Assembly: GCA_902793435.1 (NCBI GenBank)
Contig: CADBDF010000001.1
Location: 2,418-66,417 of the forward strand
DNA: 64,000 nt
DNA from: an uncultured Pseudomonadota bacterium
GTDB taxonomy: Bacteria > Pseudomonadota > Alphaproteobacteria > Rs-D84
Direction: 5' to 3'
The notes beneath the pieces were generated by a model. That model searched no databases and was not told the DNA's origin. It saw only the letters and a program-made list of their open reading frames with translations. The translations under genes and the position numbers were made by a program. Positions 9,556 to 41,415 of this stretch are shown piece by piece; the first letter of the stretch is position 1; each line of letters begins with the position of its first letter.

Positions 9556-10014
9556 ATGACAAATGAATCTGGACGTTCTTTGATTGAAATGTTGGCAGTG
9601 TTGGCGATTGGTGCGGTTATGACCGCGGCGGCATACGGAACATACAATATGTTGCGAACAAACCAAACACGCAATTTGGCATTAAATGAAATGGAACAAA
9701 TTGCACGCAACACAAAGATATTATTGGAAACACGTGGTGATTATAACGGTGTGTCGGTTGATTATTTGATTAAGGCAGGCGCAATTACAAACCCAGATGC
9801 CCCAATCGGTGATGAAAACTGGTCAATAACATCATCAGTTGATGGAAAAACGTTTTCTATCAATTTAACTAATTTAACGCACAGCGATTGTTCTTATTTT
9901 GCAACAAAGAAAATCAGTTGGGCAAAATCTGTATCTGTGAACGGTTTAGAAAAAGCCGGTAGCGAAACATGTATATCGGCACCACGAAATTATATATCTA
10001 TCAATGTTGAATAA
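9556..10014 (+). CDS. Type IVa pilin-like protein (152 aa)
   Basis: Prepilin signal MTNESG|RSLIEMLAVLAIGAVM with Glu at +5, and a C-terminal Cys pair (SDCSYF...SETCIS) typical of the pilin D-region. Confidence 0.65.
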   Translation: MTNESGRSLIEMLAVLAIGAVMTAAAYGTYNMLRTNQTRNLALNEMEQIARNTKILLETRGDYNGVSVDYLIKAGAITNPDAPIGDENWSITSSVDGKTFSINLTNLTHSDCSYFATKKISWAKSVSVNGLEKAGSETCISAPRNYISINVE

Positions 10015-11435: not shown

Positions 11436-11451
11436 TAAGAAACCAACAAAT

Positions 11452-11482
11452 AAAAAATACCGGCGTTTGCCGGTGTTTTTTT
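11452..11482 (+). terminator. Rho-independent terminator, member of the ACCGGCRTTTGCCGGT hairpin family
   Basis: taccggcgtttgccggtg followed by a T-run, immediately after the skp-like stop. Confidence 0.6.
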
Positions 11483-11580
11483 ATTCCGGCCAATTCCACC
11501 CCATAGCCAAACCAGACAAAAGGCGCAATTGTGTCCGCCACCCGAAGGGTGGTCATTGCTCGCTCGGGATGACAAAAATG
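11468..11580. repeat. GC-rich intergenic repeat element (AATTCCACCCC terminus; CCACCC-GAA-GGGTGG hairpin; ...GCTCGGGATGACAAAA module)
   Basis: Shares the AATTCCACCCCATAG terminus with the element at 13141. Shares the GCGCTCRGGATGACAAAA module with the region at about 1395..1495. Confidence 0.45.
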
Positions 11581-11633
11581 TATTGCATTTTTGTTAATGA
11601 TATTTATTTGATTTTATTGTGTTTTTATTGATT

Positions 11634-11838
11634 AAACCGGTCTAAAAAAAACCTAGGTTTAAAAGCAACAACTTTTTTCAAAAATTTTAAAATTCACTTT
11701 TTTGTAAAAACAATGCGTTATTCAAAATCGCAATTCGCCAGATGTGGTGTCGAAAAAAACCTAGGTTTTTTGTATATTTGTTATATAGCGAAAAAGCGCG
11801 GATTTCCGCCAGTTTATAAAGTCGAGAGAGTTGCAAAA
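11634..11838 (+). promoter_or_regulatory. Conserved leader/promoter of paralog A with two AAACCTAGGTTT palindromes (11649..11660, 11757..11768)
   Basis: Near-identical, in inverted orientation, to 24483..24735 upstream of paralog B. It is AT-rich and contains perfect 12-bp palindromes about 108 bp apart. Confidence 0.55.
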
Positions 11839-13152
11839 ATGTCTGCAAAATGTGCATTTTTTAGTGTTTTTCAAAAAATAATGGTATTTTGCTGTGCCAT
11901 ATTTTTTGGATTTGCCGACGCATTTTCCGCAAATTTGCCAAGTGGGTATACGGAATTGGAATATATCGAATCCAGTGGAACACAATATATTGATACGGGA
12001 ATAAACGCCACTGGTAACCTTGATATTCAAGCCACTGTGAAAATATTATCCATGGATTCTTCTATTTCTGGTTTGTTTGGTGCCAGGAATATAAGTAACA
12101 ATTCAACTCTTGATGCGGTTTGGTTAGGGGTTTCAACATCAAGAACTTTGTGGCTATACAATAACAATACTACTAATAACCATTTGCCTGTTTGGGACAC
12201 CAATAAATGGTATGATGTGCATACGATTAATGGTGATTTATATTTAGATGCTTCGAAAATTGCTACATACGAAACCGCGACATTTTCTGGACCGTTAATA
12301 TATTTATTCTCGAGCAATAATGGTGGTTCGATACAGAAGGGGGGTGGGAATTTTCAGTTTTCTAGTTTTAAGATAAAACAAAACAATACTCTTGTTCAAG
12401 ATTTAATTCCCGCGAAACGCGATAGTGACGGTGAAATCGGTATGTACGATACGGTCAGCAACACATTCTTTACCAACGCCGGTACTGGTACATTTACCGC
12501 CGGTCCGGAGGTGTTGAATCCATGCCGGAATTTGTTTGATTCATCAGCATTTAATACAGATGTTGGACAAACTAATACTTGGTTACATTTTCAAGTACCA
12601 AACGGCACATACACAATGAGTACTAATTTTCCTCCTCAAACAGGACAAGTATATACAAATGTTTGGGTTTTGGCAGGAAATGTAACATCTGGAATTGATA
12701 GTGCAACAAATGGTGTTTCTCTTGGCCACCCAAAAACAATAACTGTCACAGACGGCTGGTATTCAGTGGTGTACAGAAGTGGCATACCTAATATTCCGAG
12801 AAATCCAAAAGATTATAACTGGCAACTTGAACAAGGTTCAACAGCAACCGAGTATGTGCCGTATAATGCCAGTTGCCACAATACAAATGGAATCAAAATC
12901 GCAACCACTGCATATAACAGCGCGCGTTTTAGTCCTGTTATGACTGATTTAAATACTACTATTGCTACAATTCGCGATATCGTGACGAATACGATAAATC
13001 AAACCGCCGCAATAGCCAGTTTGCAAGCGGACAAGCAGACCCGCCCGGAAGATGCTTGTCCCGCCGGCAAAAAATGCCTACTGGTCGAAACCGAAGAAAA
13101 CGGCGTTATTGTCCCGCATTGGTTCCCGATAATAGAGGCACCCGAAGAATAA
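11839..13152 (+). CDS. Secreted phage-receptor-binding-protein-like protein, paralog A (alternative start 11881)
   Basis: Begins with a conserved leader ORF MSAKCAFFSVFQKI, then a copy-specific signal peptide MVFCCAIFFGFADAFSA. Central motifs YTELEYIESSGTQYIDTG and NWQLEQGSTATEYVPY. The C-terminal 90 aa (IATTAYN...CPAGKKCLLVETEENGVIVPHWFPIIEAPEE) is about 85% identical to paralog B. Confidence 0.6.
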   Translation: MSAKCAFFSVFQKIMVFCCAIFFGFADAFSANLPSGYTELEYIESSGTQYIDTGINATGNLDIQATVKILSMDSSISGLFGARNISNNSTLDAVWLGVSTSRTLWLYNNNTTNNHLPVWDTNKWYDVHTINGDLYLDASKIATYETATFSGPLIYLFSSNNGGSIQKGGGNFQFSSFKIKQNNTLVQDLIPAKRDSDGEIGMYDTVSNTFFTNAGTGTFTAGPEVLNPCRNLFDSSAFNTDVGQTNTWLHFQVPNGTYTMSTNFPPQTGQVYTNVWVLAGNVTSGIDSATNGVSLGHPKTITVTDGWYSVVYRSGIPNIPRNPKDYNWQLEQGSTATEYVPYNASCHNTNGIKIATTAYNSARFSPVMTDLNTTIATIRDIVTNTINQTAAIASLQADKQTRPEDACPAGKKCLLVETEENGVIVPHWFPIIEAPEE

Positions 13153-13205
13153 TTCCACCCCATAGGGGCGGGGGACCGCCCGTCACCAAAGGTGGCGGGT
13201 GGTGG
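13141..13205. repeat. GC-rich repeat element abutting the paralog A stop codon (AATTCCACCCC...GGTGGCGGGGG)
   Basis: Same termini as the element at 22919..23030 at the homologous position after paralog B. The internal modules differ. Confidence 0.5.
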
Positions 13206-13207
13206 CG

Positions 13208-13240
13208 GGGGTAAAAAAAACGCCCGGTTGGGCGTTTTTT
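13208..13240. terminator. Bidirectional rho-independent terminator (aaaaaaaacgcccggttgggcgtttttt)
   Basis: GC hairpin flanked by an A-run and a T-run, between convergent paralog A and rpsO. Confidence 0.6.
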
Positions 13241-13241
13241 G

Positions 13242-13514
13242 TTATTTACGCAAGCCTAATTTTTTAATCAAGGCTTCATAGTCTGCTTCGTTACGGCGTT
13301 TGATATATGCCAATAACTTTTTACGACGATTAACCATCAATAACAAACCGCGTTTGCTGTGTTCGTCTTTGTGGTTGTTTTTCATGTGTTCTGTTAAATT
13401 ACGGATACGTTCGGTCAAAACTGCAACCTGGGTTGCCGCGCTGCCGCCGTTATCGTTTTCAGAAACTTTGAATTCTTTAATTAATTCAGTTTTTTTTGTT
13501 TTTGTAATGGACAT
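13242..13514 (-). CDS. rpsO: 30S ribosomal protein S15
   Basis: 90 aa MSITKTKK...LGLRK, typical S15. Confidence 0.9.
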   Translation of the reverse strand: MSITKTKKTELIKEFKVSENDNGGSAATQVAVLTERIRNLTEHMKNNHKDEHSKRGLLLMVNRRKKLLAYIKRRNEADYEALIKKLGLRK

Positions 13515-13526
13515 TACATTTCCTTT

Positions 13527-14408
13527 TTATATTGTGCGTTTTGGACGCAATTGTTTATCTTGTACAAAACCGATTCCAACCAAGGTATCATCGTTATACA
13601 CGCGTACCAAACCGTCCGGTTCTGTGGTTTTGATAAATCCACCATGCCTATAAAGTTCGGTGTCTTTATCGTCCAGATTTAAAACCGGAATGCCCCCCAG
13701 TCCTAAATCTATTGGCATCAAAAATTCATTGATGTCGCCATACATTTTAACCATATTTTCCAAAAAATCAAGTGTGACAGCATTTTTTAAATCAAAACCA
13801 TTTGTGGAAATTCGGCGAATTGCGGTGACTGTCGCAATGGTTTTACAATAATTTGCAATGTCGCGCGCCAAAGACCGAACATAAGTCCCGCGCCCACATT
13901 TTACATAAAAATTCCAATTTTCACCGTCAAAGCCATCATACCTTAAATCAAAAATATGAATTTTGCGTGGTGCAATATCAATGTTTTCGCCATTTCGCGC
14001 AATTTTATACGCACGCACCCCATCAACATGTACCGCACTGTAAATTGGTGGAACCTGCATAACATCACCAATAAAATGTGTCACAGAATCGTTTATTTGC
14101 GTGTCTGTGGGAATTTTGTTGTTTTGTTGTGTGATTGTGCCGGTTATGTCTAAACTGTCTGTGCTGATGCCAAATTTGCATGAAAACAGATATTCTTTTG
14201 TGCCATCGTTTGCAGATTCTACAAATGGAATCATTTTTGTTGCGTCGCCAATCGCGATTGGTAAAACCCCAGTCGCCATTGGGTCCAATGTTCCAATATG
14301 CCCAGATTTTTTATATCCAAACAAACGCGCCACGCGTGATGATGCACTGCGACTGAATAAACCCGATGATTTGTCTAAAATAATCCAACCAGACATTTTA
14401 TTCCCCAA
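13527..14408 (-). CDS. truB: tRNA pseudouridine(55) synthase
   Basis: TruB motif GTLDPMATGVLPIAIG; 293 aa; directly upstream of rpsO. Confidence 0.85.
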   Translation of the reverse strand: MGNKMSGWIILDKSSGLFSRSASSRVARLFGYKKSGHIGTLDPMATGVLPIAIGDATKMIPFVESANDGTKEYLFSCKFGISTDSLDITGTITQQNNKIPTDTQINDSVTHFIGDVMQVPPIYSAVHVDGVRAYKIARNGENIDIAPRKIHIFDLRYDGFDGENWNFYVKCGRGTYVRSLARDIANYCKTIATVTAIRRISTNGFDLKNAVTLDFLENMVKMYGDINEFLMPIDLGLGGIPVLNLDDKDTELYRHGGFIKTTEPDGLVRVYNDDTLVGIGFVQDKQLRPKRTI

Positions 14409-16923
14409 ACAAATTTAATTGTGGCGAATTTGATTCGTTTTTATGTTTTGGCGCACTTTTGGCTTTTTCAATTTTGATTTCATTTTTAACAGTTTTGTTT
14501 TCGCCACTTTCCAATCCCGCCAACACAGATTCTGCGCGTGCAACAACCGATTCTGGCATGCCCGCCATTTTTGCAACATGAATACCGTATGAACGATTCG
14601 CAACACCATTGACGATTTTATGCATAAATATAATTTCATTATTGTATTCACGCACATCAATTGTCAGGCATGAAACCATATTTAAAACACCGCCATTATC
14701 ACCCGACAAAGCGGTTAATTCATGATAATGTGTTGCAAATAAAGTGCGTGGTGCCATATTGTTTAAAAATTCTAATACTGATTGAGCAATTGCCATACCG
14801 TCGTATGTTGCGGTTCCGCGACCGATTTCATCAAATATAATAAAAGACCGATTTGTTGCGCGACGCAAAATATTTGCGGTCTCACTCATTTCTACCATAA
14901 ATGTCGATTGACCAGCCGCCAAATTATCGGACGCGCCAACGCGACTGAATAACTGGTCACAAATTCCAATTGTTGCAGATTTTGCTGGTACAAAAGACCC
15001 CAGGTGCGCCAACACAACAATCAACGCATTTTGACGCAGATATGTTGATTTTCCCGCCATATTTGGACCGGTAATAAGGGCAATTTTTTTATTTGATAAA
15101 TCGCAATCATTTTTTACAAAGTTATCACCATGTTTGCGTAATACGGCCTCTATTACTGGGTGGCGACCGCCAACGATGCAAAAATCTGGACCTGTTGTCA
15201 TTTCTGGACACGCCCAATCGTATTCAATCGCGACAAATGTCAAAGCCGACCAAACATCTAAATCCGCCAACAAATCAGCTGTTGCCAATAAATCGTCGGC
15301 AACATCACTGATTTTCGAAATAAATTTGTTAATGATTTCTTCTTCTATGGCAGCGGCCTTGTCGGACGCATTGCGAATATCGTTATCCAATTCAATCAGT
15401 TGTGATGTTGTAAAACGAACATTACCCGCCAGGGTTTGACGATGTATAAATCCAGATTCCGGTTTCATCATATCATCGGCGCGTGTTGCCGGAACCTCTA
15501 TAAAATATCCCAATATATTATTGAATTTTATTTTTAATGTATGAATCCCGGTTTGTTCAATATATTGTGACTGCAAACCTGCAACGGTATTGCGTGCGCC
15601 ATGTGATAATTCGCGCATTTTATCCAACGATAAATCAAACCCATCACGAATAATATTCCCGTCACGAAAAAATGTTGGCAATTCATCATTTAATGCACGA
15701 TTTAATTGCAAACCTAATTCGTCATGAGTTTTTATTGCGTATAACTTTTTTGCGAAATCGTCATCTAATGCATGGGACATCATTTTTAAATTTGGCAAAT
15801 TTATAATAAAATCGCGAACATGCGACATATCGCGTGGCGTGCCGCGACCCGCGGACAACCGCGCCAAAGAACGTCCAACATCCGGCATAGATGACAATTC
15901 ATGCGCAACATTTATTAAAACATTTCGATTAGAAATAAAATGATTTATATGTTTTTGACGCAGTTTTATTTCATCAATACTGCCCGACAAAGCACGCATA
16001 TACGCACGTAATTTTCGCGCCCCCGCGGCAGTTTTTGTTTTATCCAACACATCGACCAAACATGCACCACCGGCATTTATTGGTGCATCTATTTCCAAAC
16101 TTTTCCATGTTGCAGAATCGATTAATAATTGTGCATCGTTTTTGAACTGTCGTGGCGCACGAAAAGTTGTTGTCACACCACGACCCGCATTAAATAAATA
16201 CCCAGCCAACAAACAAATTGCGCTGTCTGCGGGGTCTGTTTTTATATCGCCGACAACACCACCAAAAACAGTTTCAACAATTTGTGAAATGTCGGAACGA
16301 ATATACAATTTTTCAAATACAGGTGTTGTTTTGAACACTGTGCGCATGTGAAATATAGTGTCGTTTTCCGCATGCGAAGATGGAAATATAACCTCGGCGG
16401 GATTTAATCGCACCAAATCATCAATTAAATCATTTGTTGCGCCAACAAAAAATTCCCCGGTTGAAATATCACAACCTGCGACATCAAATCCACCATTTTG
16501 CATTGGCACAATCGCAACCAAAAAATTTGCAGACTTTGGATTTAATAAATTTTCATCGGTCAGTGTCCCAGGTGTTAAAACACGAACAATTTTGCGTTCG
16601 ATATATTTATGTCCGCGTTCCTTTGCTTGTGCTGGGGTTTCCATTTGTTCAACCAATGCAACTTTGAATCCAGATTTTACCAATCGACCAAAATAATTAT
16701 CTGCCGCATGCCATGGAATACCGCACATTGGGATATTTGCGCCTGTTTCATCGGTTCCGCGTTTGGTTAAAACCAGACTCAAAGCTTCGCTGATGGTTTT
16801 GGCATCATCAAAGAAAGCCTCGTAAAAATCGCCCAAACGGAACAGCAACAAAGCCTCTGGGTTTTCGGCCTTCATATCCATATATTGTTGCATCACCGGT
16901 GAAAGTTTTTCTTTTGCCGCCAC
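14398..16923 (-). CDS. mutS: DNA mismatch repair protein MutS
   Basis: 841 aa with TPVMQQY, Walker A GPNMAGKSTYLRQ and the C-terminal ATPase domain. Overlaps truB by 11 bp. Confidence 0.9.
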   Translation of the reverse strand: MAAKEKLSPVMQQYMDMKAENPEALLLFRLGDFYEAFFDDAKTISEALSLVLTKRGTDETGANIPMCGIPWHAADNYFGRLVKSGFKVALVEQMETPAQAKERGHKYIERKIVRVLTPGTLTDENLLNPKSANFLVAIVPMQNGGFDVAGCDISTGEFFVGATNDLIDDLVRLNPAEVIFPSSHAENDTIFHMRTVFKTTPVFEKLYIRSDISQIVETVFGGVVGDIKTDPADSAICLLAGYLFNAGRGVTTTFRAPRQFKNDAQLLIDSATWKSLEIDAPINAGGACLVDVLDKTKTAAGARKLRAYMRALSGSIDEIKLRQKHINHFISNRNVLINVAHELSSMPDVGRSLARLSAGRGTPRDMSHVRDFIINLPNLKMMSHALDDDFAKKLYAIKTHDELGLQLNRALNDELPTFFRDGNIIRDGFDLSLDKMRELSHGARNTVAGLQSQYIEQTGIHTLKIKFNNILGYFIEVPATRADDMMKPESGFIHRQTLAGNVRFTTSQLIELDNDIRNASDKAAAIEEEIINKFISKISDVADDLLATADLLADLDVWSALTFVAIEYDWACPEMTTGPDFCIVGGRHPVIEAVLRKHGDNFVKNDCDLSNKKIALITGPNMAGKSTYLRQNALIVVLAHLGSFVPAKSATIGICDQLFSRVGASDNLAAGQSTFMVEMSETANILRRATNRSFIIFDEIGRGTATYDGMAIAQSVLEFLNNMAPRTLFATHYHELTALSGDNGGVLNMVSCLTIDVREYNNEIIFMHKIVNGVANRSYGIHVAKMAGMPESVVARAESVLAGLESGENKTVKNEIKIEKAKSAPKHKNESNSPQLNLFGE

Positions 16924-16937
16924 GATTTTACACCTAT

Positions 16938-17135
16938 TTATTCAGTAATTTTCAAAGTTTCGATTTTCAATTCGGCTTCTTTTAACAATTGTTCGCAGTA
17001 AGCCTTTAATTTAATACCTTGTTCGTATGCCGCCACAGAATCAGCCAATGGCAATTCACCAGATTCCATTTTTTTAACCAATTCGGTTAATTGTTTATAT
17101 GCTTCTTCAAAGGTTAATTTTTTTTCTTCTGCCAT
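16938..17135 (-). CDS. xseB: Exodeoxyribonuclease VII small subunit
   Basis: 65 aa helical MAEEKKLTFEEAYKQLTELVKKMESGELPL. Confidence 0.7.
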   Translation of the reverse strand: MAEEKKLTFEEAYKQLTELVKKMESGELPLADSVAAYEQGIKLKAYCEQLLKEAELKIETLKITE

Positions 17136-17147
17136 TTTCTTTCCTTT

Positions 17148-18581
17148 TTATAAATTGATATCCCATGTTGTACCATTTGGCGTATCTTTTAAAACGATAC
17201 CTTTGTCCAACAACTTGGTGCGCACGTTGTCCGCCGTTGCCCAATCTTTATTTTGTTTTGCCACTGCACGTTCATTGATATATTTTTCAATATCGCCAAC
17301 AGTTATATTGGAATTTTTTAATACAGTCGATTTTATATTGTTGATATATTCATCAGGATTTTTTTGTAATATATTCAACACACCGAACAATTCAACGATT
17401 TTATTTCCAATGCGTTTTAAATCATATTCGGTTGATTTTTTTGCCAATTCAGTATTGATAAAATTAAACCAACCAAACGCAGATGCAATAACTTCCAAAG
17501 TATTAAAATTATCGTTCATTGCGCGTTCAAATTCGTTTTTAATTTCATCGATTTTTGCGTTTGTTTTGTCGGCATCTGCGCCTGAAAAATCGCGTTCATT
17601 TAATGCCATCAGCCCAGAATACATTTTATAAATGTGTCGGCGTGATTCTGGAAACAAAGAATCTGTGATATCAATATCTGCCGAATATGTATTTCGCAAC
17701 AAAGCAAATCGTATTGTATCTGCATCGTATTTATCTAAAACATCTTTTAACAAAATACCGTTGCCAAGTGATTTGCTCATTTTTTGACCATTGATTTTGA
17801 CCAATCCGCAATGAATCCAATATTTTGCAAATTGTTTTCCGGTAAGTGATTCTGTTTGTGCAATTTCGTTTTCGTGGTGTGGAAAAACCAAATCACGACC
17901 ACCACCATGAATATCAATCTGTTCGCCCAAATATTTTAAATTCATCGCACTGCATTCAATGTGCCAGCCCGGTCGTCCCATACCCCATGGCGATTTCCAA
18001 GCAATTTCACCAGGTTTTGCAGATTTCCATAATGCAAAATCTAAATCATTTTGTTTGCCTGGTTCTGTTTCTTTGCGAACGCCAGTATCATTTTTATCAA
18101 CCTGGATATGAGATAACTTGCCGTATTCATTAAAACTGGATAACTTAAAATAAACATCGCCGAACTGCGAAACATAGGCATGCCCAGAATCAATCAATTT
18201 TTGCACAAAGTTTATAATATCATCAATACAATGTGTTGCACGTGCCATAATAGTTGGTTTTTCATTACCCAATTTATCCATTTCAATATCGGTCTGTGCT
18301 ATATATTTTTCAGCAAACTCCACAGGGTCTTCATTTGCGCGTGCTGCATTGGCAATAATTTTATCATCGACATCGGTATAGTTTCTAACATATTTAACAT
18401 CATATCCCAAATAACGCAGGTATCGTGTAATAACATCAAATACGACTGATTGATATGCATGCCCAATATGTGCATCGCCCGACACAGTAATACCACATGC
18501 GTACATATTAACGATTCCAGGGTTTAGTGGGACAAAATCTTGCTTTGTTCTGGACAAAACATTATAAACTTTCAATGCCAT
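17148..18581 (-). CDS. cysS: Cysteine--tRNA ligase
   Basis: HIGH motif (HIGHAYQ), KMSKS and Zn-binding cysteines; 477 aa. Confidence 0.9.
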   Translation of the reverse strand: MALKVYNVLSRTKQDFVPLNPGIVNMYACGITVSGDAHIGHAYQSVVFDVITRYLRYLGYDVKYVRNYTDVDDKIIANAARANEDPVEFAEKYIAQTDIEMDKLGNEKPTIMARATHCIDDIINFVQKLIDSGHAYVSQFGDVYFKLSSFNEYGKLSHIQVDKNDTGVRKETEPGKQNDLDFALWKSAKPGEIAWKSPWGMGRPGWHIECSAMNLKYLGEQIDIHGGGRDLVFPHHENEIAQTESLTGKQFAKYWIHCGLVKINGQKMSKSLGNGILLKDVLDKYDADTIRFALLRNTYSADIDITDSLFPESRRHIYKMYSGLMALNERDFSGADADKTNAKIDEIKNEFERAMNDNFNTLEVIASAFGWFNFINTELAKKSTEYDLKRIGNKIVELFGVLNILQKNPDEYINNIKSTVLKNSNITVGDIEKYINERAVAKQNKDWATADNVRTKLLDKGIVLKDTPNGTTWDINL

Positions 18582-18641
18582 GACAAATTCCTTTATATGC
18601 AGGATTCAAAATACACAATAAAAACCGAACTTTCAACAAGT

Positions 18642-19058
18642 TTAATTAAATTTTTTATCAAAAAATTTGCAGATAATATCTTTGAAATCTTGGTGCATGT
18701 CTAAATGTTCGGTGTCTTGACGATTTACCCATTTATAATCGGTGTGTTCAGGCGATAAAACAACATCACCTGAAACATATTTTGCGACGAACAAATACCC
18801 AAAAAATTGAGTGTCTTTGTTGTATGCAATACCCGTCCAACCAAATACGGGGTGGGGCATTGCATCTATGTTTAGTTTAACTTCTTCGTAAATTTCGCGT
18901 GTAATAGCCGTTTGAAAATTTTCACCAAATTCAATTTTTCCACCGGGTAAATCCCACATGCCCGGGAACACAGGTGTTTCTTTGTTTCGTTTTAACACCA
19001 AAATATTTCCCTGTGCATTATATATAATTATTTTTACGACACCCCGAAAATTTGCCAT
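18642..19058 (-). CDS. NUDIX hydrolase
   Basis: Nudix box GGKIEFGENFQTAITREIYEEVKL. Confidence 0.7.
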   Translation of the reverse strand: MANFRGVVKIIIYNAQGNILVLKRNKETPVFPGMWDLPGGKIEFGENFQTAITREIYEEVKLNIDAMPHPVFGWTGIAYNKDTQFFGYLFVAKYVSGDVVLSPEHTDYKWVNRQDTEHLDMHQDFKDIICKFFDKKFN

Positions 19059-19080
19059 TTTATAAATCCATTATTTACGA

Positions 19081-19110
19081 AAAAACACCGACACTTGCCG
19101 GTGTTTTTAT
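19081..19110. terminator. Bidirectional terminator hairpin (aaaaacaccgacacttgccggtgtttttat), variant of the CCGG-family hairpin
   Basis: Inverted repeat with flanking A and T tracts downstream of mreB. Confidence 0.5.
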
Positions 19111-19121
19111 ACGATTTTGTA

Positions 19122-20174
<1,053 letters not shown>

Positions 20175-20290
20175 TCAATCCTTATCTTTTTGTCGTGCAA
20201 ACTATAAAACGATATATGTGAAAAATCAAGCGTCCTAAACAAAAAATGTTTTTATTTGATTTCTTGGATTTTTGGGGCATAATACCCGTC

Positions 20291-20725
20291 ATGAGAAATA
20301 CAATAAAAAATCATAAAGATTTTATAACCCCGCGCGATTTTCCATATGCGGTAATGGATTGGTTTTCTGTGCATACCAAATTGGCAAAATATCCAGATGA
20401 TGCGCGTTATGGACTGACTGTGGCAAAACGTAATTTTCGTTATGCGGTTCAACGCAATCGTGCGAAGCGTCTGTTGCGTGATTGGATTGCGTTTGCAAAT
20501 CGTTATATGTGTCCAGATTTAGATTATATTTTCTTTGCGCGTCCTGGTATATTAAACGACGATGTCACGCGTGATGCCGGCCGTCAAGCGATGGTGCGCG
20601 CATTAAAAGATATTCGTCACAGAAACGATTTTCGTAAAAATGGATACCAAAAAAAACCAAAAACTAATCCCCAAAACAAATCTCAAAATGCGTGTGATAA
20701 AACAAAAAAATCCAACGAAAAGTAA
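20291..20725 (+). CDS. rnpA: RNase P protein component (start chosen at [11 protein letters not shown]; the ORF extends upstream to 20246)
   Basis: RnpA-like basic core ...[27 protein letters not shown], with a Lys-rich C-terminal tail overlapping yidD. No rpmH was found upstream. Confidence 0.7.
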
Positions 20726-20762
20726 TTCGTTTTTAACCAACGTTGGTGTGCGTTTGGTAAAA

Positions 20763-20948
20763 ATGTATCAATCGTGTATATCGCCATTTATTGGCGGTCG
20801 ATGTGCCTGCCGTTTTGTTCCCTCATGCAGTGAATACACCAAAATTGCAATTGAAAGATACGGATTGTTTCGTGGAATTTGGTTGGGTATAAACCGAATA
20901 TCGCGTTGTCGTCCGGGTGGTGGGTTTGGATATGACCCGGTACCTTGA
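20763..20948 (+). CDS. yidD: Membrane protein insertion efficiency factor YidD
   Basis: [25 protein letters not shown]... has the characteristic Cys pattern, and the gene sits in the canonical position after rnpA. The ORF-track start at 20640 is likely too far upstream. Confidence 0.75.
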
Positions 20949-21029
20949 CTTTTTGCGTATGTGTGGTAAAATTTAATTAAAACACTTGAAAAATATATTG
21001 GTGTAATAGAGTTTATAAAAGGATAAAAA

Positions 21030-21470
21030 ATGTCATTTCGTGCGACCGTTGAATCTATGTCAAAAATCATGGACGATATGGGAATAACAGAATTGGATTT
21101 GGAACGTCAATTTTTATTTGGCGTATATCGCAAACATATTCATTTGTCCAAAGGAACCGCTGTTGCGATGCCAACTTTTTCTGCGGATAAAACAATTAAA
21201 AATTCAACGACTTCTGCGGCATCTGCGCCTGAATATGCAAATGCGCTAAAATCCCCAATGGTTGGTGTTGTATATTTGGCAACCGAACCGGGTGCAAAAC
21301 CGTTTGTTCGTGTTGGCGATACGGTGCATGCTGGCGATACAGTCGCCTTGGTCGAGGCTATGAAAACATTTAATCCAATCAAGGCAACAACCGATGGTGT
21401 CGTCAAAGAAATTTTGGTGACTGATGCCCAGGCGGTTGAATTTGACCAGCCTTTGATTGTTATAGAGTAA
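21030..21470 (+). CDS. accB: Biotin carboxyl carrier protein of acetyl-CoA carboxylase
   Basis: C-terminal biotinyl domain EAMKTFNPI (AMK biotinylation motif). Confidence 0.85.
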   Translation: MSFRATVESMSKIMDDMGITELDLERQFLFGVYRKHIHLSKGTAVAMPTFSADKTIKNSTTSAASAPEYANALKSPMVGVVYLATEPGAKPFVRVGDTVHAGDTVALVEAMKTFNPIKATTDGVVKEILVTDAQAVEFDQPLIVIE

Positions 21471-21476
21471 TTTAAT

Positions 21477-22871
21477 ATGTCACAAATAAAAAAAGTTTTA
21501 ATCGCAAATCGTGGTGAAATTGCATTGCGTATAATTCGTGCGTGTCGTGATATGGGTATTCGCACAGTTGCGGTTTATTCGACCGCTGATAAAAATGCGA
21601 TGCACACACAATTGGCTGATGAAAGTGTATGTATTGGACCTGCGCCATCACGTGATTCTTACCTTAATGAATCTGCAATTTTAACTGCGGCGTTGCTGAC
21701 AAATGCGGACGCAATCCACCCAGGATATGGTTTTCTATCGGAAAATGCCGGATTTGCGCGCAAGGTTGAATCCCATGGTATGATTTGGATTGGACCATCA
21801 CCTGATATGATTGTTCGTATGGGGGACAAGGTTAATGCAAAAAAAACGGCTATTGCGTGTGGTTTGCCGGTTGTGCCGGGGTCAAGTGGTGCGGTAAATT
21901 CTTTGGCTGATGCCAAAGCATGCGCGGAAAAAATTGGTTATCCTGTAATGTTAAAGGCTGCATCTGGTGGGGGTGGTCGCGGTATTCGTGCGGTTTTTAA
22001 ACCCGAAGATTTAGCCGAGGCTTTTGCCACAACTCGTGCCGAGGCAAAATCCAGTTTTGGTGACGAAACATTATACATGGAAAAATTATTGTTGCACCCA
22101 CGTCATATTGAATTTCAAATATTGGGTGACAAACATGGAAATGTTGTTGTATTGGGCGAACGCGATTGTTCGTTGCAACGCAAAAATCAAAAGTTAATCG
22201 AAGAATGTCCTGCGGCGATTTTATCACAAAAACAACGCGATGATATGATTGAAATTTGCAAAACTGCCGCTAAAAAAATGGGGTATTTCAGTACAGGAAC
22301 TTTTGAGTTTATGTATGAAGACGGCAAATTTTATTTCTTGGAAACAAATACCAGACTCCAAGTTGAACACCCGGTCACAGAAATGGTTTATGGCATAGAT
22401 TTGGTGCGCGAACAGATTCGTATTGCGGCGGGCGAAAGGTTGGGCTATTCCCAGGCGAATATCGTGCCACATGGCCACGCGATTGAATTTCGTATCAATG
22501 CCGAAGACCCTGAAACATTTATTCCAAACCCAGGGACGATATCATTGTATGCGCCATCTGGTGGATTAGGCGTGCGTGTGGATTCCGCCGTCTATACTGG
22601 ATATACGATTCCACCGACATACGATTCCATGATTGCGAAATTGATTGTGCATAACACGTCACGTGCGACATGTATAATGCGTGCAACGCGTGCGTTGGAA
22701 GAATTTGTAATCGAAGGTGTTAAAACCACAATTCCATTACATAAAAAATTGTTAAACAATCGTGATTTCAGGCAACTGAATTTTGATAATCATTGGTTGG
22801 AAAATTATTTGTCATCTGCGCCAAATCCAGATGATGAAATAACCCCAACCGAAGAAAATTCACAAGAATAA
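21477..22871 (+). CDS. accC: Biotin carboxylase
   Basis: ATP-grasp fold with KVLIANRGEIALRIIRAC and MLKASGGGGGRG. Confidence 0.9.
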   Translation: MSQIKKVLIANRGEIALRIIRACRDMGIRTVAVYSTADKNAMHTQLADESVCIGPAPSRDSYLNESAILTAALLTNADAIHPGYGFLSENAGFARKVESHGMIWIGPSPDMIVRMGDKVNAKKTAIACGLPVVPGSSGAVNSLADAKACAEKIGYPVMLKAASGGGGRGIRAVFKPEDLAEAFATTRAEAKSSFGDETLYMEKLLLHPRHIEFQILGDKHGNVVVLGERDCSLQRKNQKLIEECPAAILSQKQRDDMIEICKTAAKKMGYFSTGTFEFMYEDGKFYFLETNTRLQVEHPVTEMVYGIDLVREQIRIAAGERLGYSQANIVPHGHAIEFRINAEDPETFIPNPGTISLYAPSGGLGVRVDSAVYTGYTIPPTYDSMIAKLIVHNTSRATCIMRATRALEEFVIEGVKTTIPLHKKLLNNRDFRQLNFDNHWLENYLSSAPNPDDEITPTEENSQE

Positions 22872-22887
22872 ATAAAAAATACACAAT

Positions 22888-22919
22888 AAAAACACCGGCA
22901 TTTGCCGGTGTTTTTTTTT
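22888..22919. terminator. Terminator hairpin aaaaacaccggcatttgccggtgttttttttt (canonical ACCGGCATTTGCCGGT family member)
   Basis: Perfect 7-bp stem with a TTT loop and flanking A and T runs. Serves convergent accC and paralog B. Confidence 0.65.
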
Positions 22920-23030
22920 ACCCCCGCCACCCGCTTTCGCTTCGCTTCAGCGAGGTTCCCCGCCCCAAGCGTCACCCACAAAATTTTACAAATTTTGCGG
23001 GGCCCGATTGGGGTGGAATTATTATTCGGG
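22919..23030. repeat. GC-rich mosaic repeat element, full-length type (CCCCCGCCACCCGCTTTCGCTTCGCTTCAGCGAGG...AT-rich module...GGGGTGGAATT)
   Basis: About 90% identical to 33638..33752 and to the shorter 63428..63495. Abuts the stop codon of paralog B. Confidence 0.6.
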
Positions 23031-24362
23031 TGCCTCTATAATTGGATACCAGTGCGGGACAATAACACCGTTTTCCTCGGTTTCGACCAATAAACATTTT
23101 TTGCCGGCGGGGCATTGTTCGTCCGGGCGGGTCTGCTTGTCCGCTTGCAAACTGGCTATCGCGGCGGTTTGATTTATCGTTTTTGTGACTATTTCGCGAA
23201 TTGTTGCAATCGTAGTATTTAAATCAGTCACCACTGGATTAAATTGCGCAGTATTATATGCCGTTGTCGCGATTTTGATACCCAATTCCAGGCTATTCGA
23301 CACAAGTGTTTGACCGTTTTGCAACAAAGTACGAATCGTTGTGGCAATCGTTCCATTATTCTGTATAACCGGCGCGGTGGTCATGGTCTGTCCCGCAACA
23401 GATTCCGTTGTCGGTTCTGCAAGTGGGTATATTACGATTACAGGTGTTCCCGCTGCATACTGGTCGGCAATATATCTTTTCCAATCGGTAACTGTTGGAA
23501 AATCAGTTACAATATTATAGAAGTTTAAATCTGCACTGCCATCTATTTCGATTTTAGACGACACAGATTCTGTTATATTGCTTAATGGCACAGTTTTTGC
23601 TCTTGCAATACTTCTAAGGACCATAGTCGTATACCCACTCCTCCAAGGACTCCAATTCTCCTTTCCATTAAACACCATGACACCGACTTTGCGGGTAATG
23701 ACGCCAGTGTTGATATTTTGTTCATCGGCATAGTCACCAACCGCAAACAAAGTTTCCACATTCGCGGAATGATTCGCACTGTCGCGCACAGTCTCCCCCG
23801 CCCCTTCGGTGTAAATTGAACCGTATGGATGATACGTCGTTGCGGTTGAACCTTTTTCAAACTGTGCATTTGCATAAGTTGTACTCGCATTACCGCCATC
23901 ACGTCCTGTGATTCTAATAAATGCGACACCAGACGGAATATTTATCTGATATGCACTTGATGCTTGTGCCAAGACAGATGATACAAAATTTTTATTATTA
24001 TCATAAAAACAATGATATGCTGGAACACCTAGTGAACTCGTAAAACCAGATAAATAATATGTTGTATTTTGCTGAACAGGTATATAGTCAGAATATCCCC
24101 ATACGATAGACCCTGTTTTTGTTCCGTCTTGAGCCAAATAATCGCCATGTGTCCAAGTGCTTACTTTAAACAAATTCTTACTCAGTTTTATCGCCCCATT
24201 ATTGGTCACGATATTGACGGGATTGCTGGGGGTTGGGGTGCCGGATTGCTCGGTTGCACCAACGACGGTGACACTGGATATCGATTCGCCATCGGCGTAT
24301 ACAGGGGATGCGGTAATTAGCACCGTTAACGCAAGCAGTAAAGATGATAAAAACTTTTTCAT
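23022..24362 (-). CDS. Secreted phage-receptor-binding-protein-like protein, paralog B (start at MKKFLSSLLLALTVLITASPVYA)
   Basis: Own signal peptide and an unrelated central region containing AQFEKGSTATTYHPY. The C-terminal IATTAYN...CPAGKKCLLVETEENGVIVPHWYPIIEAPE is conserved with paralog A. The ORF-track extension to 24488 reads through a repeat element and is unlikely to be translated. Confidence 0.6.
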   Translation of the reverse strand: MKKFLSSLLLALTVLITASPVYADGESISSVTVVGATEQSGTPTPSNPVNIVTNNGAIKLSKNLFKVSTWTHGDYLAQDGTKTGSIVWGYSDYIPVQQNTTYYLSGFTSSLGVPAYHCFYDNNKNFVSSVLAQASSAYQINIPSGVAFIRITGRDGGNASTTYANAQFEKGSTATTYHPYGSIYTEGAGETVRDSANHSANVETLFAVGDYADEQNINTGVITRKVGVMVFNGKENWSPWRSGYTTMVLRSIARAKTVPLSNITESVSSKIEIDGSADLNFYNIVTDFPTVTDWKRYIADQYAAGTPVIVIYPLAEPTTESVAGQTMTTAPVIQNNGTIATTIRTLLQNGQTLVSNSLELGIKIATTAYNTAQFNPVVTDLNTTIATIREIVTKTINQTAAIASLQADKQTRPDEQCPAGKKCLLVETEENGVIVPHWYPIIEAPE

Positions 24363-24482
24363 ACTCCCCCGTTTTCTTTTCCTTTGCCTATAACCCCCTC
24401 CGTCACTCTCGTTGCGTTGCAACTTGGTGACCCGCCTCCCCGGTCGCGCTTGCGCGCTGGGGCGGAATTCTGGACGCACAAA
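24363..24482. repeat. GC-rich repeat element inserted between the conserved leader and the paralog B start codon (…GGGGCGGAATTCTGG terminus)
   Basis: Shares CCCCCTCC and GGGGCGGAATT modules with the other elements. Absent from the homologous position in copy A. Truncates the conserved MSAK leader ORF (24359..24601). Confidence 0.5.
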
Positions 24483-24735
24483 AACCACCAGATTTTTTGT
24501 AAAACACCAAAAAATGCACGTTTTGCAGACATTTTCGCAACTCTCTCGATTTTATAAACTGGCGGAAATCCGCACCTTTTTGCCATGTTTTGATTATACA
24601 AAAAACCTAGGTTTTTTTCGACACCACATCTGGCAAATTGCGATTTTGAATAACGTATTGTTTTTACAAAAAAAGTGAATTTTAAAATTTTTGAAAAAAG
24701 TTGTTGCTTTTAAACCTAGGTTTTTTTTAGACCGG
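24483..24735 (-). promoter_or_regulatory. Conserved leader/promoter of paralog B (inverted copy of 11634..11880), with AAACCTAGGTTT palindromes at 24603..24614 and 24712..24723
   Basis: Reverse complement matches copy A almost base-for-base, including the leader ORF start MSAK(R)AFFGVLQKI. Confidence 0.55.
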
Positions 24736-24770: not shown

Positions 24771-24805
24771 ATAAAAAAACACCCAACATGTTGTCGGGTG
24801 TTTTT
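24771..24805. terminator. Terminator hairpin (acacccaacatgttgtcgggtgttttt)
   Basis: Inverted repeat plus a T-run downstream of the TPR gene. Confidence 0.45.
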
Positions 24806-27347: not shown

Positions 27348-29621
27348 ATGGTTGAAAAATTCAAGATTTTATCTGTTGGCGGTTCGTCCAAAGGATTAAA
27401 CATTTTTAAATCGTCGGCTTATAAAGAGCACGAGGCGGGGCAATTCGCCCAAATGTTTTGGATATTCCGCTGGAACGCTATGATTTGGTGCATTTGCGCA
27501 CTGATGTTTGGGTTTGCATTTATTATCGAACATATTTTCAGGTATGGGTGGTCGCCCGCATCGTTGCATTGGTCTGGTATTTTTTTGGGACATGCATTGC
27601 ATTCTTTTGGGCTGTCTGTGGTTGCAGAGGTTCCTAATTGGATTATGCGTGCAATATTTAACCCTGATTTCGAATGTATTGTGCCAATTATACCTATTAT
27701 CGCTTTCTATTTTATGGCAGATGATACATTGACCAAGGAATTTAACCCACATGGCAAAGATATGTACGACGAAAAATCTTCGCGCAAGGCAAATGCAAAT
27801 GATATTAAAAAAATGGGAAAATTTGCATGGAAAACAAAAATGGGTTTGTTCCAAGGCTTTATGATGGTTTTGGGATATTTCAAAGACGGAAAAACATCTA
27901 AACCTTTGATGATGGACGAAACATTGTCTGTGTTGTGTGTGGCGCCTCCGGGAACCGGTAAAACCGCCGGGGTTGTGATTCCTACGATTGTTGAATGTGA
28001 TAATGTTTCCATGATTATCAATGACCCAAAGCCTGAATTGAAACAATTAACATCCGCATATCGCGCGACCATTGGTCCGGTGTTCATTATGAATTGGGCG
28101 GGACAAGACGATCCAGAACGCGGAATATTTTATCCATCTTGGAATCCGTTATCCCCAGAACATGTCCCAACCGAAGTCGAACAACGCGATTTGTATGTTG
28201 ATACAATATGCAAAGTGTTGGTACCTGATGCAACCGGGTCAAGTGCAGACCCGCACTGGTCAATATCTGGACGCGCAGGATTATCTGGATTTATTCAATA
28301 TATTGTTTCAAAAATAGAACGCGCCAAAGCCGATGATTATTTTTATGCACGTTTGCAATCTGGCGAATTTAACCAAGAAGACGCAAATGTTTTGATGGAT
28401 TATTATTTATCTATGTCGTCTAATCAAAACGCGTATGCGGCATTGGGATTATTACAACGCGGTGAATTAAATACGATGAATTATGTGCATGTTGGGTCTT
28501 GGCGACATATCCCAGATGCTTGGTTGGGTAAAGAGGCATCTTTGTCCATGATTTTGGATTGGTTAAACGCATCACAATTGGCAAACGCCGCACAAATGGA
28601 AGAACGGCGCAAACAAGGCGACCAAATGGTTGCGTTGGCTGACCCAATGAAAGACGTTTTAGAAGATGCTGTAAATGAGGCTGTAGAGTTTGCATATTCG
28701 CATCGTGCGGTATTGGAATTGACGCAACTGGCAAATACACCTGATAAAGAACGCGGGTCTATTTTATCAACAATTATGGCAGGATTAGGCATTTTCCGTA
28801 ATGCCGCAGTGCGCAACAGAACATCACATTCCGATTTCCATTTCGAAGATTTAAGAGGATTAAAAGACCCACGTGATGGCAAAATTAAACCTGTATCGGT
28901 GTATCTATCTATTAACATGGTCGATGCCCAGGCTTTGAACCCAATTACTGGAATTTTCATTGAATTGATGTCTAATTATCTGTTGGTAAATACCCCAGAT
29001 GTTATTAGCACGTCTGGTAAAAGATTGGGGCCATACCCGGTATTGTTCGTGTTGGACGAAATGCCAAAAATGCAAAAATTAGATGCGGTTATCCAAGGAC
29101 CTGATTTGGGACGTGGGCAACAAATTTCTTATCTGATTATTGGCCAGGATTTACACCAAATCCAAGAAAAATATGGCGCGGACGCAGCGGCAACTATTAT
29201 TTCAACAACCGCGGCAAAAATCATTATGCGTCAAAATGACCCGGATACCGCAAAACGCTTTTCCGACATGATTGGAAAAGAAATCAAAAAAGAAAAAAAG
29301 AAAGACAAAGACGGAAAAGAAACCATTGAAACCAAGGCACCAAAAGATTTATACTCGCCAATGGATATTATGACCCTGCCCGAAGGCAAGCAGATTGTTT
29401 TGTTCCAAGGTTGGTATCATAGACCGATTGAGGCCGACCAAGAAAGACATTTTTTGGAAAAGAACGATATTCAAAAGAAACTGCACGCCAAAGTGGCAAT
29501 GGGCGAATCTGCACCTATGCCTGAATTCTTGGTACCGGCACACTATCGTGCGATGGGGTATAGTGGCCCAATTAAATTCTTGGACCCAACCACAAAGACA
29601 ATTAAAGTTTTGGCTGAATAA
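27348..29621 (+). CDS. Type IV secretion coupling protein (VirD4/TraG family), orphan
   Basis: N-terminal TM helices, Walker A VLCVAPPGTGKTAGVVIPT and Walker B/arginine-finger region VLFVLDEMPKM...GRGQQISYLIIGQD. A Lys-rich C-terminal extension is present. No relaxase or VirB genes are in the window. Confidence 0.65.
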   Translation: MVEKFKILSVGGSSKGLNIFKSSAYKEHEAGQFAQMFWIFRWNAMIWCICALMFGFAFIIEHIFRYGWSPASLHWSGIFLGHALHSFGLSVVAEVPNWIMRAIFNPDFECIVPIIPIIAFYFMADDTLTKEFNPHGKDMYDEKSSRKANANDIKKMGKFAWKTKMGLFQGFMMVLGYFKDGKTSKPLMMDETLSVLCVAPPGTGKTAGVVIPTIVECDNVSMIINDPKPELKQLTSAYRATIGPVFIMNWAGQDDPERGIFYPSWNPLSPEHVPTEVEQRDLYVDTICKVLVPDATGSSADPHWSISGRAGLSGFIQYIVSKIERAKADDYFYARLQSGEFNQEDANVLMDYYLSMSSNQNAYAALGLLQRGELNTMNYVHVGSWRHIPDAWLGKEASLSMILDWLNASQLANAAQMEERRKQGDQMVALADPMKDVLEDAVNEAVEFAYSHRAVLELTQLANTPDKERGSILSTIMAGLGIFRNAAVRNRTSHSDFHFEDLRGLKDPRDGKIKPVSVYLSINMVDAQALNPITGIFIELMSNYLLVNTPDVISTSGKRLGPYPVLFVLDEMPKMQKLDAVIQGPDLGRGQQISYLIIGQDLHQIQEKYGADAAATIISTTAAKIIMRQNDPDTAKRFSDMIGKEIKKEKKKDKDGKETIETKAPKDLYSPMDIMTLPEGKQIVLFQGWYHRPIEADQERHFLEKNDIQKKLHAKVAMGESAPMPEFLVPAHYRAMGYSGPIKFLDPTTKTIKVLAE

Positions 29622-33637: not shown

Positions 33638-33752
33638 ACACCCCCTCCACCCGCTTTCGCTTCGCTGCAGCGAGGTCCCCCTCCCCAATGCTTACCCAAA
33701 AAATTTTTACAAATTTTTCGAGGCCCAGCGGGGCGGAATTTATTTGCAAATG
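33638..33752. repeat. GC-rich mosaic repeat element, full-length type
   Basis: CCCCCTCCACCCGCTTTCGCTTCGCTGCAGCGAGGTCCCCCTCCCCA...TTTTTACAAATTTTTCGAGGCCCAGCGGGGCGGAATT; homolog of 22919..23030. Confidence 0.6.
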
Positions 33753-37151: not shown

Positions 37152-37415
37152 TTTCTTTCCTCCCCTTGATTTAAAAAAAATACCGCAAAAAATGTGCGGT
37201 TGGAGGCAAGAAAAACTACTACCAAGAATAGCGTTGCTTATTCAAAATATTCGCAACCCTCCAACCACATGGTGCTGGAGATAACTTGGTAATAAGGGTT
37301 TTCTTGTCCCACATTGGCAACCCACCAATGCAAGTGTATTTTAACCGATATGTTATAAATTTGCAAATCTTTTATTTATTTTTGACATCAAAATACCGCC
37401 CATTTGGGCGGTGTT

Positions 37416-39283: not shown

Positions 39284-39303
39284 TAGTTAGTTGAAAGATT
39301 CAA

Positions 39304-39404
39304 AAAAATACCGGCAATTGTCGGTATTTTTTTAAATTCAGTGTTCAACACACAGAGTTCGGTTATGGCATAAAAAATACCGGCATTTGCCGGTATTTTT
39401 TGCT
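39304..39404. terminator. Tandem pair of terminator hairpins (taccggcaattgtcggta; taccggcatttgccggta), ACCGGCATTTGCCGGT family
   Basis: Two hairpins 68 bp apart, each with A/T flanks, between convergent pal and parB. Confidence 0.55.
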
Positions 39405-39418
39405 ATTTTTTAACATTT

Positions 39419-41185: not shown

Positions 41186-41379
41186 TATTTCACATGAAAC
41201 AACAATCATTTTACACATATTTATTTATAACCGGTTTTTTAACAATTTTTATCAAAAGCGCCGGCAAAAGCCGTTAATTTTTTTTAACAAACATATTTAT
41301 AATAAAACACCGGTATTCGCCGGTCTTTTTTCTGTTTTTACGCATTTTCAATATGTTATATTTTATTTCACATGAAATA
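41186..41379. promoter_or_regulatory. Two parS-like 16-mers (TATTTCACATGAAACA at 41186..41201; TATTTCACATGAAATA at 41364..41379) plus two family terminators, in the rsmG-parA intergenic region
   Basis: 14/16 and 13/16 matches to the parS consensus TGTTTCACGTGAAACA. Confidence 0.4.
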
Positions 41380-41415
41380 ACGCAAAAAAATGCCGGCATT
41401 TACCGGTGTTTTTTT

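Follow-up and report, generated by a model that had tools for sequence, protein, structure and literature searches.

The window analysed here, a 64-kb stretch of contig CADBDF010000001.1 from an uncultured alphaproteobacterium, carries two genes, A and B, whose upstream blocks of about 255 nt are nearly identical (A 11620-11879, B 24752-24492). We consider it likely that the 5' region of gene B is a mosaic of three parts: a candidate switch module, a graft that placed the start of a class-A gene (the type to which gene A belongs) in front of a different gene, and an older GC-rich repeat. Read on the minus strand from 24820 to 24200, the region consists of a hairpin, an AT-rich leader, ATG TCT GCA AAA CGT, a GC-rich stretch, GGGGGAG and finally ATG AAA AAG. 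This module structure, the in-place inversions of a leader segment in relatives and the existence of a repeat family are direct observations. An earlier note on this DNA had proposed that a repeat insertion remodelled copy B and truncated a conserved leader open reading frame (ORF). Copy B has indeed been remodelled, but, as far as the sequence comparisons reach, the GC-rich piece did not truncate that ORF, and the class-A start would instead have been truncated by the graft of the 5' module.

The arrangement at gene B is not an assembly error, because an independent assembly (L026) matches the window with 99.93% identity and zero gaps over 4447 nt, leader B included. Comparisons were made with loci L001-L027, taken from metagenomes and metagenome-assembled genomes (MAGs). 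Scans with leader 21- to 23-mers yielded four copies in the MAG RUG14746, a species representative (L007-L010), and ten metagenome loci (L011-L020), and L022-L027 were added through protein look-ups. The same type of scan on viral contigs gave no matches. As the earlier note had described, both copies begin with a conserved short ORF, MSAKCAFFSVFQKI at 11839 (+) and MSAKRAFFGVLQKI at 24532 (-), and that of copy A continues in frame into a hydrophobic stretch. Its view of A and B as paralogs holds for the leader and for the last 86 aa, the only part that aligns in BLASTP (88% identity), but not for the middle parts of the proteins, which are unrelated.

Where do class-A genes begin? In all of the class-A leaders (11, with 10 distinct sequences), MSAK, MSVK or MSIK continues in frame, with no indels, into the remainder of a 31-aa signal peptide, which ends ..CCAIFFGFANAFSA ahead of NLPSGYTELEY. 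Codon 15, the "MVF" methionine of the earlier note, is ATG in four of the distinct sequences, GTG in three, GCG in one and ACG in two, and the proteins P0069, P0074 and P0102 agree on this variation. Since GCG or ACG stands there in 3 of 10 sequences, translation must start further upstream, at MSAK. Signal-peptide features, judged by eye, comprise K4, K13, a core IMVFCCAIFFGF and the end AFSA|N, with a length that is invariant in ten genes. Even a distant genome (L021/P0073) retains GAGAGAG followed by ATG TCT, together with a homologous signal peptide. On this comparative reading MSAK is the true start codon of the 31-aa signal peptide of class-A genes, copy A included.

It follows that MSAK..QKI is conserved as the beginning of a signal peptide, and the suggestion of an upstream ORF (uORF) conserved for its own sake is not supported. 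Variable sites over the 31 class-A codons number 12, 5 and 14 at positions 1, 2 and 3, a coding-like pattern; over the first 14 codons they number 5, 4 and 3, with no excess at third positions, and these codons are a loosely constrained n-region. The leader ORFs of A and B differ at three sites, all non-synonymous, so that neither the counts over the first 14 codons nor this comparison reveal constraint on the short ORF itself, be it at the peptide or at the codon level. Window B and L010/L013 are the only cases in which the MSAK ORF stands apart from the main one; it is absent from the type-1b leaders described below, where its ATG is replaced by ATT. Nor is the signal peptide of A copy-specific, as had been thought, the hydrophobic stretch being common to all class-A genes. 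Gene A is accordingly re-annotated from MSAK (11839..13152, plus strand, 437 aa, 31-aa signal peptide ending AFSA|N), neither from the second methionine nor with the public 479-aa upstream extension. The public calls P0099 (479 aa; window 11713-13152) and P0001 (485 aa; 23022-24488) both begin too far upstream, the former inside the candidate invertible segment and the latter inside the GC-rich repeat.

Copy B retains this start as a relic. A vestigial class-A signal-peptide start, recognised by homology, occupies 24472..24532 (-): ATG MSAKRAFFGVLQKI is followed by a degenerate VVFV.. with a 1-nt deletion, B reading TGGTGGTTTTTGTGCGTCC where L007 reads ATGGTGGTTTGCTGTGCC, and the missing A changes the frame. 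Close identity ends past QKI, where the earlier note had placed the end of homology, but degenerate class-A homology persists for some 19 nt more (24490-24472). A GC-rich stretch does follow the leader (GC 0.60 over 24363-24482 in a window of 0.397), yet the repeat proper measures 77 nt (24393..24469, minus strand) and not 120 bp, and 24363-24392 is a purine-rich Shine-Dalgarno (SD) region outside it. After the repeat B reads TATAGGCAAAGGAAAAGAAAACGGGGGAGT and then ATG. The leader ORF at 24359-24601, a program-made ORF of 80 aa counted from a TTG, terminates in another frame, and gene B has its own ATG at 24362 (both as first described), its own SD GGGGGAG (24364..24370, minus strand; conserved in L001, L002 and L017) and its own signal peptide (MKKFLSS..VYA).

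The repeat subtype AATTCCGCCCCAGCGCGCAAGCGCGA..GGTCACCAAGTTGCAACGCAACGAGAGTGACGGAGGGGGT, with the 3' flank TATAGGCAAA.. and the ribosome-binding site, precedes MKKFLSS or VKTFFSS genes in L002, L017 and L020. L002 is the syntenic locus, its flanks 95-97% identical to the window; there a different leader, of type 2 and with a second repeat copy nested in it, stands in front of window B's repeat subtype and SD. In L017 and L020 that subtype lies behind type-1b leaders. L001, whose gene product is 73% identical to that of gene B, has neither gene B's repeat nor the MSAK leader. Because subtype and 3' flank recur behind different leaders, the repeat appears to be an old resident of the 5' untranslated region (UTR) of MKKFLSS genes. 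Copy B is therefore probably a graft in which the promoter, the 5' UTR and the first 20 or so codons of a class-A gene were placed on a different, MKKFLSS-type gene. In this step a class-A 5' module would have recombined onto a gene that already carried the repeat, leaving the relic start behind and producing the order, from 5' to 3', of promoter module, 5' UTR with GAGAGAG, relic start of about 20 codons, 77-nt repeat, and own SD with ATG.

The competing account, that the ORF was truncated when the GC-rich repeat recently inserted into a class-A-type leader or gene that was still intact, has some points in its favour: the repeat starts about 3 nt past the last recognisable class-A homology, restoring the one missing A would bring MSAK, repeat and gene B into one frame, and type-1b leaders do have repeats within their signal-peptide coding region. 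We nevertheless regard it as very improbable. What lies downstream of the repeat is a different signal peptide and mature protein, not those of a class-A gene; subtype, 3' flank and SD stand behind unrelated leaders in L002, L017 and L020; and no target-site duplication is seen.

A graft of this kind fits a family that recombines often. The flank on the TPR side and the leader (window 29108-24505) run on, in RUG14746, into a different gene of 274 aa, whose C-terminal module joins window 12892-15751. Because of these joins, the stretch of about 10 kb between the family genes appears rearranged, consistent with an inversion. The rearranged stretch, window 13169-23002 (rpsO, truB, mutS, cysS, mreB, rnpA, yidD, accB, accC), lies between the convergent family genes and is joined in reverse in L010, where the 274-aa cassette is found; one of the breakpoints, which fall within the family genes, was seen. 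L027 is orthologous to the locus of copy A, with OmpH upstream and with rpsO and truB downstream, and holds a 331-aa gene in place of the 437-aa one.

The GC-rich element itself is a REP/MITE-like dispersed repeat, with six copies in the window. Pattern matching and folding describe the copy in front of gene B as AATTCCGCCCC, a hairpin, GGGGAGG, a second hairpin and GGAGGGGGT, the two ends pairing imperfectly. A pattern search in 207 kb found 17 copies of 47-101 nt in which the ends and the central G-run are conserved and the hairpins vary in sequence yet are kept, with fold z-scores from -0.2 to -3.0. Within the window the 5' box AATTCC[G/A]CCCC occurs six times against 1.4 expected and the 3' box nine times against 3.5 expected. 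One copy lies directly past the stop of gene B in the orientation of the gene (22920..23020, minus strand), another overlaps the stop codon of gene A (13151..13212, plus strand), and a degenerate one begins at 11492, upstream of leader A. In a comparison of the filled with the empty site (L001) no target-site duplication was visible, and with Rfam gathering thresholds the window returned tRNAs only.

Two other identities were considered for the repeat and given up. In E-value mode, Rfam gave sub-threshold matches to BSnc120 and the rimP leader on post-stop GC repeats of L002, L004 and L005, which were rejected as chance. Integron attC-like cassette sites came to mind since the repeats flank gene B as direct repeats; the idea was dropped, as the copies at 33640-33740 and 63433-63493 lie near housekeeping genes in opposite orientation and no integrase was seen. 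Two further small elements were noticed. A second repeat family (..CACTCGCTCGGGATGAC.., complement GTCATCCTGAGCGAAG..) adjoins GC-rich repeats and is found at window 11492-11575, directly upstream of leader A, at L003:3130-3200 and at L017:2620-2700. Eight copies of a terminator-like hairpin, AAAACACCGGCATTTGCCGGTGTTTTT, represent a repeated intrinsic-terminator unit, with sites listed at window 11442-11486, 19070-19114, 22877-22921, 39293-39406 and 41243-41419.

Is the relic start of copy B still used? It keeps the class-A initiation context, and because this context matches that of genuine class-A starts, ribosomes probably initiate there. They would then read the 57-codon uORF at 24359..24532 (-) through the repeat, whose frame is that of the uORF and is shifted by 1 nt from gene B, and terminate at the main start, where the TGA (24361-24359) overlaps the ATG as ATGA. 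Such a passage could couple the translation of the two frames, and translational coupling is possible from this layout. L010/L013 have a 19-codon ORF whose stop overlaps the start of another gene as GTGA.

One may go further and regard the MSAK ORF of B as a functional regulatory uORF, whose passage through the repeat to ATGA sets the translation of gene B. The full class-A context of its start, the 57 open codons with a stop 1 nt into the main start, the similar design in L010/L013 and a repeat that folds at -31 kcal/mol would all suit this role. Against it, the peptide is not conserved past QKI, MSAK is conserved elsewhere as a gene start, and gene B carries its own strong SD; the frame relation arises by chance in one case out of three, ATGA and GTGA follow from second codons for Lys or Arg, and in L017 an early stop falls 251 nt upstream of the main start. 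We therefore think a regulatory uORF unlikely, and continue with the relic start as a remnant of the graft.

The grafted module brings with it an element that the earlier note missed and that lies just upstream of its interval (24359-24601). Each leader contains two palindromes of the form A6-8 CCTAGG T3-7 with cores 108-119 nt apart, a rule that holds in 22 of 22 leaders whose upstream part is on the contig; L018, cut by a contig end and left with the proximal palindrome only, falls outside this count. In copy B the distal site TCTAAAAAAAACCTAGGTTTAAAAG spans 24707..24731 (-), with its core at 24715-24720, and the proximal site GTCGAAAAAAACCTAGGTTTTTTG spans 24599..24622 (-), with its core at 24606-24611 between the -35-like and -10-like hexamers. 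Between the cores lies a 103-nt AT-rich segment (24612..24714), a candidate invertible segment in orientation 1. The counterpart of copy A (11641..11772, plus strand) has its distal site at 11641-11665, the segment at 11658-11759 and the proximal site at 11749-11772. The flanking inverted repeats, centred on CCTAGG, measure 15-18 nt. Four of the five CCTAGG in the window belong to leaders, and at the other loci there are none outside leaders; for an 18-mer palindrome the window has four occurrences where 0.1 are expected, all of them within the two leaders. The upstream limit of leader B is given by a terminator-like hairpin of the upstream TPR gene, AAAAACACCCGACAACATGTTGGGTGTTTTT (24775..24805, minus strand), whose equivalent also stands upstream of leaders in L007, L010 and L011.

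In 3 of 23 leaders (L011, L024 and L025) the segment is found in the opposite orientation, orientation 2. For L011 the aligner scored the segment at 87 when inverted and at -4 when direct. L011 shares both flanks with L007, and blastn places the segment on the minus strand (88.7% identity) and the flanks on the plus strand. L024 and L025, both inverted, are located on one 251-kb contig, and L025 is orthologous to L022/L023 (MscS on the upstream side, BOF on the downstream side), both of which show the common orientation. Both orientations therefore occur at orthologous loci, in L011 versus L007 and in L025 versus L022/L023, that is, between samples or genomes. De Bruijn assemblers are not known to make such an inversion from 16-nt repeats without supporting reads. 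A MITE as the explanation of the 103-nt segment was rejected, as the inversion took place in situ with identical flanks.

A sigma-70-like promoter straddles the segment boundary, with TCGAAA inside it, a 17-nt spacer and TATAAT outside (24593..24621, minus strand); it agrees with the consensus at 10 of 12 positions and is a consensus match only. Copy A has the equivalent arrangement at 11750-11778. It counts for the switch that a promoter-like site was found in orientation 1 and none in L011. Given a -35-like hexamer inside the segment and a TATAAT outside, inversion would change the sequence upstream of the -10. The leader can thus be read as holding a candidate phase-variation switch, a function that we infer from this layout and from the two orientations. 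Downstream follows a shared 5' UTR (24533..24586, minus strand) with a small hairpin GCGGATTTCCGC (24562-24573) and the SD-like GAGAGAG (24541-24547).

Several points weigh against the mosaic as a whole, and they touch the switch as well as the graft. The two orientations were seen only when different genomes or samples were compared, never inside a single population. The orientation-2 leaders L024 and L025 come from one genome, in which that orientation may be fixed, and the core of L025 is mutated (CTTAGG). No recombinase was found by regular expressions on the ORFs of the window or by tblastn with Hin and XerD in 222 kb, and 103 bp is short for recombinase-mediated looping. Promoter consensus matches are no commoner than in shuffled sequence. 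Orientation 2 yields TTGC(A/T)T-18-TATA(A/T)T, TTGCAT-18-TATAAT being the promoter form of type-2 leaders; because orientation 2 also gives a promoter-like form, ON and OFF are not assignable. The whole 5' UTR of B was tried as an unusually stable structure and rejected (z = +0.96). Finally, the exact graft junction is not placeable, TGGTGGTTT being also the 3' arm of the type-2 leader terminator; the junction may be a micro-homology crossover.

The palindromes can also be read as operators for a dimeric repressor, whose loop of about 109 bp of bent, AT-rich DNA would cover the promoter; the inversions would then be rare accidents of evolution involving short inverted repeats. The position of the proximal palindrome within the promoter spacer speaks for this, as does a spacing of 108-119 nt that hardly varies, also in L021, where the sequence between the sites has diverged. 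So do the lack of a recombinase in the window ORFs and the 222 kb searched, and the single orientation seen per genome (four leaders in orientation 1 in RUG14746, two in orientation 2 in Ga0392372). However, three clean in-place inversions among 23 leaders have their breakpoints exactly in the palindromes, at least two of them are independent (different loci and lineages), and the inner half-sites resemble those of Din-family invertases. We judge operators alone to be rather unlikely, if somewhat less so than the regulatory uORF; operator and switch are not exclusive and may coexist.

With the candidate switch preferred, a bolder picture can be drawn, which we offer tentatively and hold to be less probable than its opposite: a trans-acting invertase would flip a genome-wide set of 103-bp switches, at least four per genome, each before a different tail-fibre-like secreted protein, with the repeats of sister leaders translated in the manner of Rickettsia palindromic elements (RPE) before the signal peptide and other members of the family under an undescribed riboswitch-like terminator leader. 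If true, an uncultured alphaproteobacterium of the rumen would possess an adhesin-like repertoire that phase-varies in a combinatorial manner. The findings point to phase-variable, cassette-shuffling surface or secreted proteins made from phage tail-fibre modules in a lineage known from metagenomes only. The signature, two A6-7CCTAGGT6-7 palindromes about 109 bp apart, makes the state of the switch readable from metagenomic reads.

What kind of protein stands behind these leaders? Gene B belongs to a large recombining family in uncultured rumen and gut Alphaproteobacteria. A homology search returned 807 relatives, all derived from metagenomes or MAGs and labelled Alphaproteobacteria or Proteobacteria, and sequence searches of Pfam, PHROGs and the PDB with A and B gave nothing useful. 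The product of gene B (23022..24362, minus strand, 446 aa) contains jelly-roll modules and the conserved 86-aa C-terminal module; the AlphaFold model is of low confidence (mean pLDDT 60), with a well-predicted jelly-roll at residues 60-170, and also shows a long C-terminal helix and a beta hairpin. Foldseek against viral models gave 69 matches at E <= 0.001 (best 3e-12), namely tail fibre, distal tail and neck-passage proteins, and against the PDB only weak CBM and depolymerase matches. From these models the family would therefore comprise secreted, modular, tail-fibre/CBM-like proteins with a conserved C-terminal module.

Some neighbouring features deserve mention. In L008:6195-7820 (-) and P0002 the "C-terminal" module lies mid-protein and is followed by a second class-A-type domain (..PHWFPIIENICGVPSGYTCLDYIQASGTQYIDTG..), an order which implies that family modules can be concatenated. 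The stretches 3482-7417 (-), 9556-10014 (+) and 27348-29621 (+) of the window hold several adjacent ORFs with prepilin-like N-termini and, near family genes, a VirD4/TraG-like ORF of 757 aa. L003 has a family gene that is immediately preceded by a secretin and TcpQ.

Two other leader types accompany family genes. Type-1b leaders start (T/A)TG ACT GAA AAA CGG (MTEKRQFLRIAKK..), and in P0011 this start runs straight into a signal peptide. In others no stop codon interrupts the frame that begins with (T/A)TG MTEKRQF.., crosses 230-360 nt of GC-rich repeats and enters the downstream gene (P0006, P0030, P0062, P0066, P0082 and P0088; L003:2958-3212, L009:3864-4095 and L020 (-) 3627-3264), and variants differ by in-frame or compensated indels only. 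This pattern suggests that translation includes the type-1b repeats, which would add some 80 aa in front of the signal peptide, similar to RPE. In L017 the type-1b frame does not fit the downstream gene, which has an SD and an ATG of its own, as in window B.

The type-2 leader is a riboswitch-like element of about 190 nt with a TTGCAT-18-TATAAT promoter and an intrinsic terminator. The genes behind it are members of the family and, for the copy in the window, an HTH gene that follows infC; examples are window 37165-37345 (-), L002:1972-2155, L005:2290-2474, L008:1118-1312, L017:676-868 and L012:7612-7770. Its invariant GGTTGGAGGG has two possible pairing partners, an upstream CTCCAAC and CCTCCAACC, the latter overlapping the terminator. 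Across the six examples several helices vary in sequence and stay complementary, including a long-range pairing (TAATATCAAG/CTTGATATTA in L002, TAATGTAAG/CTTACATTA in L008, TCAAATAG/CTATTTGA in L017), and the P2 loop pairs with the bases immediately ahead of CCTCCAACC. The type-2 leader had no Rfam match, and RNAalifold recovered the invariant antiterminator pairing only, since the automatic alignment mis-registers the variable helices.

How does this region compare with systems already described? Close parallels to the leader are the invertons, such as fimS of E. coli, hin of Salmonella, the Mpi-controlled promoters of Bacteroides fragilis, and cwpV and the flagellar switches of C. difficile. 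Shared features are a short segment between inverted repeats directly upstream of surface or secreted genes, many copies per genome, both orientations in nature and a promoter part on the segment. Invertons have been reported mainly beside surface and adhesion genes (PMC11602134, PMC11892184). The leader segment differs in being shorter (103 bp) than the classic cases, in repeats that are themselves palindromes with a symmetric core, in that inversion would exchange the -35 region only, in orientations known between genomes or samples, and in that no recombinase for it was identified in the window ORFs or in 222 kb.

Among invertase sites, those of the Din family (hix, gix, cix, pix) share the inner half-sites AAACC/GGTTT and a 2-bp centre with A in second position, as in hixL, TTCTTGAAAACC AA GGTTTTTGATAA (PMC3241671 Table 3). 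Of the 26-bp site model TTC---AAAC- -A -GTTT---GAA, the inner AAACC/TA/GGTTT fits and the outer triplets do not: TTC/GAA are unmatched in the leader sites, whose A/T tracts are 2-3 nt longer. The leader core TA is symmetric, unlike the known cores AA or GA, and no invertase gene or enhancer is found in or near the segment. Hin can flip a promoter of 200 bp (PMC2427008). The genes controlled by Gin, Cin and Pin are likewise tail-fibre-like, but the leader switch would act on a promoter and not on alternative 3' gene ends.

The proteins recall mosaic families such as vsp/vlp of Mycoplasma, opa/pil of Neisseria and vls of Borrelia, with 5' regions and C-terminal modules of near-identical DNA around unrelated middles and with orthologous loci that hold different cassettes (L027 compared with copy A, L002 and L010 with copy B). 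They differ from them in that no silent cassette archive was seen and in being built from phage-tail-fibre/CBM-like modules. The GC-rich repeat, with its length of 47-101 nt, its hairpins, its dispersed, intergenic positions and its frequent place right after stop codons, resembles REP/BIME, MITEs and RPE; QMITE2 of Coxiella is found mainly in 3' UTRs (PMC10969869). It has no clear terminal inverted repeats or target-site duplication, in which it differs from MITEs, and no similarity above threshold to Rfam families. Like RPE, the GC repeats of relatives sit inside ORFs with the frame kept, whereas the 5' copy of the window is 1 nt out of frame with gene B. Taken by analogy, these likenesses do not call for a new category: the region would work like an inverton before a mosaic surface-protein family, with a REP/MITE-like repeat in its UTR.

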